38,381 nt of DNA from a virus (lineage: Duplodnaviria > Heunggongvirae > Uroviricota > Caudoviricetes). Numbering within the stretch: the first letter of the stretch is position 1; every line of letters begins with the position of its first letter. The translations under genes were made by a program, and so were the position numbers. The notes beneath the pieces were generated by a model that did no database searches, was not told where the DNA came from, and worked only from the letters and a program-made list of their open reading frames with translations. The DNA lies in the IMG/VR virus record IMGVR_UViG_2563366886_000002, positions 1 to 38,381 of that record; one strand, written 5' to 3'. This document shows, piece after piece, positions 27,070-27,234 of the stretch.

Positions 27070-27234
27070 GGGATGTTTTTGCGGGTTATTTGAGGGGTGT
27101 TTGCGGGTTATTTTGAATGTCTTGCGGGTTACATTCTGGCTGATATTTAAATGCGTTGTTTTTTAACATATTGATATTAAAGAGTAAAAGATAATTAGCA
27201 CGCGAAGATAACCCGCTAACCCGCATAACCCGCA
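27070..27234. repeat. second iteron cluster with the same 9-mer as the ori (candidate cis-acting replication or packaging region)
   Basis: TGCGGGTTA at 27070, 27092, 27113 (about 22-bp spacing), AT-rich spacer, then TAACCCGC at 27209, 27217, 27226. Confidence 0.6.

Follow-up and report, generated by a model that had tools for sequence, protein, structure and literature searches.

This work concerns a cluster of short repeats (iterons) in a stretch of viral DNA of 38,381 bp (IMG/VR record IMGVR_UViG_2563366886_000002; hereafter the window). The cluster lies in an island that is a capsid-forming phage-inducible chromosomal island (cf-PICI), with a Rep taken to be a helicase of the type known from Staphylococcus aureus pathogenicity islands (SaPIs), inserted in the terL gene of a prophage. 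An earlier reading of the letters alone (the original prediction) had noticed that the 9-bp motif TGCGGGTTA recurs near the right end of the element and had offered a site like crr of P4, a second origin, or a link of replication to packaging or integration as its role. We propose, with a probability of about 70%, that this second cluster is module B, the second of two initiator-binding units forming the origin in a family of Gram-negative PICIs, displaced to the vicinity of attR. Cluster 2 is homologous to rep-proximal origin units of other islands, its iteron co-varies with theirs, the iterons are selectively conserved and the orientation of the module is kept. The features on which the argument rests are as follows.

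16799..18919, plus strand: Rep, a DUF927 primase/helicase-type initiator of 706 residues (Pfam DUF927; PHROG DNA primase)
18599-18916 (residues 601-706): the C-terminal region of Rep that tracks specificity
18942..19066, no strand assigned: module A (cluster 1), two adjacent iterons (plus), a 45-bp AT spacer and four spaced inverted iterons (minus)
18942 and 18951, plus strand: cluster 1 iterons TGCGGGTTA, exact matches
19005, 19016, 19037 and 19058, minus strand: cluster 1 inverted iterons TGCGGGTTA, exact matches
27080..27131, plus strand: left arm of module B (cluster 2), three direct TGCGGGTTA iterons at 27080, 27102 and 27123, exact matches with 22- and 21-bp phasing
27132..27208, no strand assigned: AT-rich spacer of module B, 77 bp, 71% A+T, a candidate DNA-unwinding region
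27209..27234, minus strand: right arm of module B, three inverted iterons with 8-9-bp phasing, of which 27217 and 27226 match TGCGGGTTA exactly and the sixth iteron of the cluster, AGCGGGTTA at 27209, has 1 mismatch
27237..27262, plus strand: tail of module B, GTTTTGTATATATATACGAAAAATTG, a T-tract followed by the 12-bp palindrome GTATATATATAC
27263..27372, no strand assigned: conserved stretch of some 110 bp found behind right-end copies of module B

All 11 exact copies of TGCGGGTTA in the window were confined to the two clusters, as the original prediction required of a motif restricted to two loci. Only 0.29 copies were expected from 100 dinucleotide shuffles, none of which contained 11 or more (the maximum in any shuffle was 2). 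With one mismatch allowed, 20 matches were counted against 8.5 expected; the two clusters supplied most of the excess and the remaining copies were scattered singles at about the chance level. The 8-kb distance between the clusters (18942 to 27080) was also borne out, as was the location of cluster 2 just before attR, since comparison with the uninterrupted target gene put its end 280 bp inside attR. The anatomy needed some correction. The three direct copies exist but begin at 27080, 27102 and 27123 instead of 27070, 27092 and 27113 (a constant shift of 10 bp), and the announced 22-bp phasing describes the first step, the second being 21 bp. The three inverted copies at 27209..27234 were found, the first of them imperfect. 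The unit was taken to end there, but the functional unit reaches further; the invariant tail at 27237-27262 belongs to it.

Module B thus delimited is a single unit of about 185 bp. It starts 8,161 bp past the rep stop codon and 80 bp past the stop of the island terL, whereas module A begins 23 bp after the rep stop codon. The arms of clusters 1 and 2 were paired by the repeat finder as mutual inverted repeats, and the two architectures are mirror images. When duplex stability was computed across the 15.2-kb island, the minimum for 40-bp windows (27158-27198, z = 3.6) fell inside the module B spacer, and the (TA)5 palindrome of the tail ranked among the five 20-bp windows of lowest stability; the spacer of module A stayed outside the eight least stable windows at all three window sizes tested. 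The tail may be an unwinding or priming site, or a -10 element.

Rep is the predicted iteron-binding protein. Over residues 210-605 it is homologous (E = 1.6e-16) to a solved structure, PDB chain 8tch_A, whose deposited name is 'Pathogenicity island protein'; we take this relation to put it among the SaPI/PICI Rep helicases, and SaPI Reps bind iterons via a C-terminal winged helix (PMC9371898). An origin of the SaPI/PICI kind has been defined as an AT-rich region flanked on both sides by two or more iterons, the two sets facing opposite ways (PMC9371898, PMC6092414). Taken by itself, cluster 2 has this composition, with three direct iterons, the 77-bp spacer of 71% A+T and three inverted iterons, so the suggestion of a second origin is compatible with the published definition. 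The likeness to SaPI/PICI origins comprises convergent iteron sets flanking an AT spacer, homology of Rep to 8tch_A and an iteron that tracks the Rep C-terminus. The window island differs in that cluster 2 is not 3' of rep but 8.1 kb away near attR (cluster 1 does adjoin rep) and in that there are two separable units, with about 12 iterons and two AT-rich spacers.

Related islands were surveyed at 80 loci from species-representative Enterobacterales genomes, collected via Rep alignment, and at additional E. coli loci, about 100 islands in all; individual loci are given L numbers below. The dominant 8-mer downstream of rep, found de novo, varied by lineage: TGCGGGTTA, ACGGGTTA, GTGGGTTA, TGAACCAAC, GAGACAAC and GAACCGAC, with GGGACAAC, GTGTGTCA and others as further lineage iterons. 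Across islands, unit A consists of two adjacent iterons, an AT spacer of about 45 bp and four spaced inverted iterons; unit B has three iterons at 21-22 bp, a 45-77-bp AT spacer, three adjacent inverted iterons and the T-tract/TATATA tail. The three-iteron left arm with 21-22-bp steps thus recurs, with other iterons, in the homologous modules of other islands. Combined, A and B form a large quasi-palindrome.

With an iteron-agnostic detector, A-type modules were found solely 26-102 bp after the tblastn-defined rep end, at every locus that had one. B-type modules fell into two classes by distance downstream of rep, 186-357 bp (14 loci with strict criteria) and 5.9-10.9 kb, and their orientation relative to rep never changed; in shuffled loci the detector returned no module (0/180). 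When iterons were counted with 1 mismatch allowed, about 46 loci had roughly 6+6 copies adjoining rep and 29 had only about 6. For 21 of these A-only loci 9 kb or more of sequence was available downstream, and 11 of the 21 had 5-6 copies of their own iteron in a distal cluster (8/18 in the unbiased genome-contig set), although at one of these 11, L070, B was merely 587 bp from rep and nearly contiguous. In the window island and in islands of at least six other genera, B is found close to attR at a downstream distance of 2-11 kb; it keeps its orientation there and carries the iteron of the island in question.

The contiguous state is well illustrated by E. coli islands. In L003, B directly follows a cluster-1-like unit, at most 380 bp from the rep stop, with the same iterons, spacer family and 26-bp tail. 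In L091, which represents the experimentally studied cf-PICI prototype of the EcCIEDL933 type (10.1101/2022.09.08.507074), A and B are contiguous after rep; the iterons and the spacer family are again the same, but only L003 has the tail of the window unchanged, that of L091 being a related one. Another E. coli PICI, L093, also has B directly after A, and in all three islands B is within about 330 bp of the rep stop; unit B was about 200-360 bp from rep in L003, L091 and some 46 other loci. L091 shares with the window island the gene set from int, alpA and the DUF927 rep through TerL, a terL gene about 90% identical at the DNA level, the iteron and a near-identical Rep C-terminus, and it has the same cargo genes downstream of contiguous A+B, but nothing comparable at its right end. 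The 042-type island, to which the window island belongs, in turn has neither a proximal B nor the small gene after it and carries B after terL. The notion of an ori plus an extra site was therefore not upheld: the two clusters are units of one origin that is contiguous in most relatives, the EcCIEDL933-type lineage included.

The iteron of the distal module agreed with the rep-proximal iteron of the same island in three sequence classes. Distal B with TGCGGGTTA occurs in the window, L005, L088 and L092 (E. coli islands at four integration sites, with two cargos), with TGAACCAAC in Rosenbergiella, Serratia, Lonsdalea, Chimaeribacter and Pantoea islands and with GGGACAAG in E. albertii. As cargo the TGAACCAAC islands have ProQ/FinO, an SLT-domain protein, Fic or a tape-measure-like protein in place of capsid genes. 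The iteron type followed Rep residues 601-706 and not the remainder of the protein. The Reps of L006 and L089 are 97-99% identical to the window Rep in the core and 26-40% identical at the C-terminus, and their iteron is another one; those of L003 and L005 are 33-49% identical at the N-terminus and 93-100% at the C-terminus, and their iteron is the same. The part of the original prediction that saw in cluster 2 a second set of binding sites for the element's own initiator is thus supported, the proximal and distal iterons being the same 9-mer and co-varying.

Conservation within the module pointed in the same direction. In seven TGCGGGTTA-type B copies from different contexts, 21% of the iteron columns were variable, mainly because of one gap, versus 55-77% of the spacer columns (Fisher p = 1.8e-6), the AT-rich spacer having 55%. 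The imperfect first copy of the right arm, AGCGGGTTA, is identical in L002, L003, L005 and L087. The 26-bp tail was 100% invariant in 7/7 aligned modules, one of them with a different iteron and one contiguous and rep-proximal, and behind B the islands of Rosenbergiella, Serratia, Lonsdalea, Chimaeribacter and Pantoea likewise have a T-tract/TATATA tail. The segment of about 110 bp behind the tail was found in L002 (12203-12316), L005 (17655-17768), L087, L088 and L089; it is common to islands with unrelated integrases at five sites (terL, hpt, clpS, tRNA-Pro and dinD) and is missing after contiguous B. A structured RNA was considered for this segment on both strands and rejected on account of weak energies, unfavorable covariation terms and few compensatory pairs; an Rfam scan of 26900-27600 at E <= 1 gave no match. 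In database searches module B had no match in 72,556 plasmids and a single 75-bp match, to an unannotated 2.2-kb record, among 50,697 phage records, from which we conclude that it is not a phage or plasmid origin.

The mechanism that would fit these data starts from Rep, a SaPI-type self-loading helicase/initiator expected to recognize the 9-bp iteron TGCGGGTTA through its C-terminal domain. Each unit would offer two convergent iteron sets around an AT-rich spacer, and Rep hexamers would, as on SaPI origins, assemble on the convergent sets and melt the DNA between them. Most islands have A and B adjoining each other directly behind rep, with about 6+6 iterons; in the window island B appears to have been relocated by about 8.1 kb, past the single-stranded DNA-binding protein (SSB) and the capsid and packaging genes, to 280 bp inside attR. 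This location puts B just upstream of attP and int in the excised circle, as crr is in P4. B could then be an independent origin, or it could assist A in cis through Rep-mediated bridging. We expect B to be bound by Rep and active in replication, because it is a complete unit and contains the most easily melted DNA of the island; binding of Rep, melting at B and cooperation of A with B are all predicted from sequence. That Rep bridges two separable units at a distance, and that such bridging is needed for initiation or copy control, is a tentative extension of this scheme; on the 15-kb circle A and B are 8 kb apart one way and 7 kb the other.

Several points weigh against a displaced origin unit. 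The AlphaFold model of Rep, made with a view to the putative winged-helix C-terminus, has a mean pLDDT of 45 and is unusable, and the PDB profile homology stops at residue 605. Unit A alone also fits the SaPI/PICI origin definition, and a plasmid could replicate from a cloned rep-ori segment of EcCICFT073 (PMC6092414); A may thus suffice and B be dispensable. Ten A-only loci had no B within 10 kb, although the fetched 10-kb flanks gave no att repeat and stop short of attR. L002 has a right-end TGCGGGTTA-type B but a different primase with TGTCTACC iterons, and the degraded island L087 has B yet no rep; B can therefore persist, at least temporarily, without serving a Rep of its own. The loci that bear on B copies which are extra or lack a cognate Rep of their own are 12020-12176 and 6960-7210 in L002, 12021-12175 in L087 and 11870-12030 in L089, the last of which combines a contiguous B with an extra right-end B', both with GGGACAA-type iterons on the same scaffold and with the identical 26-bp tail. 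Replication of such islands in trans, by the Rep of a co-resident island, is one possibility. A further relative, L004, has a packaging module near-identical to that of the window and a Rep of the 'DNA primase family' that is about 41% identical to the window Rep where aligned; its replication module, at 6606-8660, has this primase followed by 9-11 copies of CTGTTCAC (TGTTCAC iterons), with the same core as the P4 type-1 iteron, and a second iteron cluster was not found in the island. L004 illustrates wholesale replicon swapping between satellites. L002, L087 and L004 together indicate that right-end modules recombine between islands and that B is not universally tied to a cognate Rep.

The comparison with P4 (NC_001609), from which the crr-like interpretation was drawn, gave a mixed result. 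P4 also has two clusters of one iteron several kb apart (crr at 4291-4590 and ori at 9086-9809; 4.7 kb in P4 versus 8.1 kb here). In the P4 record crr is followed by arm repeats (4151-4174), the attP core (4078-4097), arm repeats (3915-3965) and int; the excised island circle has the same order, with B, arm repeats at 27419-27439, the core, arm repeats at 12408-12428 and int from 12449. The integrase of the island is of the P4 type, and each crr unit, when read in the direction of alpha, is laid out like B, with spaced direct iterons, an AT spacer, adjacent inverted iterons with 9-bp phasing and an A/T tract. The island Rep, however, has no detectable similarity to P4 alpha (BLASTP, best E 0.011 over 54 residues, no meaningful alignment), the iteron is TGCGGGTTA here and TGTTCACC in P4, and crr consists of two tandem 120-bp units directly 3' of alpha whereas the attP-proximal unit of the island is single and the rep-proximal one is of A-type. 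The requirement for crr in cis is established for P4 only. Because the initiators are unrelated, the likeness is one of analogy or very distant modular kinship and not of family membership. The neighborhood of attP, arm repeats and int and the layout of the unit thus speak for a crr-like site, the unrelated Rep and the lack of two tandem 120-bp units against it, and the element as a whole, with a Rep related to 8tch_A rather than to alpha, is a capsid-forming PICI and not P4-like. Cluster 2 is best read as a Rep-bound displaced origin unit that is crr-like in position and layout without being a member of the P4 crr family.

Initiator sites in two or more clusters separated by genes are familiar from iteron plasmids, e.g., incC/incA of P1, ori2/incC of F and alpha/beta/gamma of R6K, where initiator-mediated pairing or looping lets the distal clusters control copy number or serve as a remote enhancer. 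The initiators of these plasmids are of the RepA/pi type and are not helicases, and the control arrays are direct repeats without an unwinding region of their own; module B differs in having a complete origin architecture. In the chromosomal origin of Helicobacter pylori, described as bipartite with oriC1 and oriC2 separated by dnaA (PMC3479198), initiator-binding sub-regions are likewise split by coding sequence; that origin is DnaA-dependent and split by one gene rather than by 8 kb of cargo, and no evolutionary relation is implied.

These plasmid precedents make it worth weighing whether cluster 2 is a control locus that titrates Rep or 'handcuffs' with A, restricting or timing replication, or that serves as the operator of a tail promoter reading across attP into int after circularization and so couples replication to integration; we consider this unlikely. 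A separated second iteron cluster is the classical copy-control layout (P1 incA, F incC). The last iteron is followed at 10-12 bp by a TATATA box in the invariant tail, and where the units are contiguous a gene begins about 20-35 bp past the tail. In the excised circle, as calculated from the att cores and the inferred int start, int is on the strand of the tail and begins about 430 bp beyond it, the order crr, arm sites, attP, int being that of P4. The consensus promoter and terminator scan, however, was empty on the plus strand at module B, without a sigma-70-like site at the tail (one weak minus-strand site was returned near attR). Furthermore, unlike simple direct-repeat control arrays, B has full origin architecture around the most meltable DNA of the island, and in most relatives it is contiguous with A inside the origin. 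The link to integration raised by the original prediction, for example transcription from module B across attP into int, is accordingly kept as a possibility only.

It is improbable that cluster 2 is a non-functional relic, moved or copied by inter-island recombination at shared right ends and awaiting decay. Orphan (L087) and non-cognate (L002) copies exist, the right-end segment is common to islands with unrelated integrases, and the additional B' next to a contiguous B in L089 means that duplication or transfer of the module does occur. The selective conservation of iterons amid diverging spacers argues against decay, as does the recurrence, in seven or more genera that differ in iteron sequence and cargo, of split units sharing a cognate iteron. 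The orientation relative to rep is always kept, and where B is distal the proximal B is missing, so that the total stays at about 12 iterons. A further reassignment, to a packaging signal (a cos site or an accessory pac site) for the island's own terminase, would build on the island terL stop just 80 bp upstream and on the link to packaging raised earlier, but hardly deserves credence. The module adjoins rep, far from terminase genes, in most relatives, it is present in the terminase-free islands L088 and L092, and the repeat co-varies with Rep and not with TerS/TerL, L004 having a near-identical packaging module without such a cluster. No match to the lambda-type cosN (ACGGGGCGGCGACCTCG) with up to 4 mismatches was found in the window, whereas the positive control, L003, gave a perfect match upstream of terS. 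The earlier link to packaging is therefore not retained, the HNH-TerS-TerL module of the island also lying elsewhere. In Rpp-type PICIs cos is upstream of rpp (PMC9026076). The right-end segment had been tried as a PICI cos site because of a GACGGGGCGG string and was dismissed, since there was no cosN within 4 mismatches and that of L003 is elsewhere. The displaced origin unit remains the reading that we prefer.

The boundaries and the remaining genes of the island are listed below. Both att cores were placed by aligning the two junctions to an uninterrupted prophage terL (L086), and the island spans about 12277-27514 (15.2 kb).

12270..12276, no strand assigned: attL core TTACCAA, 7 bp
12449..13671, plus strand: P4-type tyrosine integrase (Pfam Arm-DNA-bind_3 and Phage_integrase)
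19130..26999, plus strand: cargo arc between A and B, comprising SSB, PerC, capsid, prohead protease, portal, connector, HNH, TerS and TerL
27419..27439, plus strand: integrase arm-type repeats on the attR side, GTGTATTGC twice, a direct repeat with 12408-12428
27515..27521, no strand assigned: attR core TTACCAA, 7 bp

The integrase is 25% identical to P4 Int (E = 7e-24), and analogous paired arm repeats are located near both ends of L002 and L005. Other island genes encode two AlpA homologues, an Icd-like protein and a DUF4222 protein; the head and packaging module is of the HK97 type. The gene order int-alpA-...-rep-ori is that of PICIs. No tail or lysis genes are annotated within 12277-27514. 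According to one published description (10.1101/2025.02.11.637232), cf-PICIs measure about 15 kb, encode an integrase, AlpA, replication functions and a complete set of capsid and packaging proteins, and lack tail and lysis genes; the gene content and size of the island agree with this and also with the description in 10.1101/2022.09.08.507074. Experimentally, cf-PICIs are further marked by induction through a helper phage and by small capsids of their own to which helper tails are joined. The excised B-attP-int junction was not found in IMG/VR, where 22 contigs all had the integrated form.

The island portion at 12200-27599 is 99.98% identical to the chromosome of E. coli 042, with three differences over 15.4 kb. 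One is a 1-bp deletion in an A-run at 13339 (A7 versus A8 in the RefSeq E. coli 042 record), which frameshifts the integrase; the others, relative to the same record, are a 1-bp insertion in a G-run at 16250, among small ORFs upstream of rep, and a single substitution at 27275. The two indels may be genuine phase-type variants, in which case the copy in the window cannot excise alone, or else sequencing errors in homopolymers. The terL gene of the resident prophage is split by the island into N- and C-terminal fragments (11249-12276 and 27515-28251), and the reading frame of the N-terminal fragment continues into island DNA to make up a 699-codon ORF (11249-13348). The uninterrupted gene is present in about 900 complete E. 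coli genomes, and the interrupted junction recurs in several IMG/VR contigs. Without excision of the island, DNA packaging by the resident prophage should fail. Genes for tRNA-Met and tRNA-Arg(TCT) at 5537-5787 of the window, in the prophage late region upstream of the island, are typical of lambdoid phages. Two copies of the palindrome-containing word TGTGCGCACA, 23 bp apart at 15732-15764, precede the Icd-like gene in the regulatory region of the island, and L004 has an analogous word pair, GATATCAC, at the equivalent place; the TGTGCGCACA pair is a candidate operator for an island regulator.

Other cargo was noted between the two origin units of related islands. L088 (3332-10679) and L092 (4327-11674), both islands with a DUF927 Rep, carry three large unannotated proteins there (about 843, 686 and 918 residues), which may be a defense system. 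The PICI-like Chimaeribacter island L040 has, at 13558-16968, a 1136-residue protein with TMP_3 and Phage_HK97_TLTM tape-measure domains, a cargo unusual for a satellite.

Replication of PICIs and cf-PICIs has so far been described in terms of a single iteron origin beside rep. The cf-PICI papers contained no mention of iterons or of a second cluster, and a full-text search for split or bipartite PICI origins returned nothing; we thus found no description of a two-unit separable origin with a displaced unit in the cf-PICI and PICI literature searched. According to the present analysis, at least seven genera have islands whose second origin unit is close to attR, at distances of up to 11 kb. 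For such islands, half of the origin may be missing from minimal replicons, copy-number assays and engineered satellite vectors that combine rep with only the adjacent ori. The arrangement also offers a testable parallel, with a structurally characterized class of helicase-initiator, to the long-known requirement for both ori and crr in P4, the mechanism of which is unresolved.

If the two units are indeed bridged by Rep, the position of B beside attP would tie full origin function, or int transcription, to the excised circular state, the ori/crr design of P4 would represent a general solution among satellites with unrelated initiators, and A and B would be fixed handles for the exchange of cargo such as capsid modules and defense genes. 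For the annotation of these islands it follows as a rule that a cognate iteron should be looked for near attR, and module B may serve as a marker for tracing the exchange of cargo modules between satellites.

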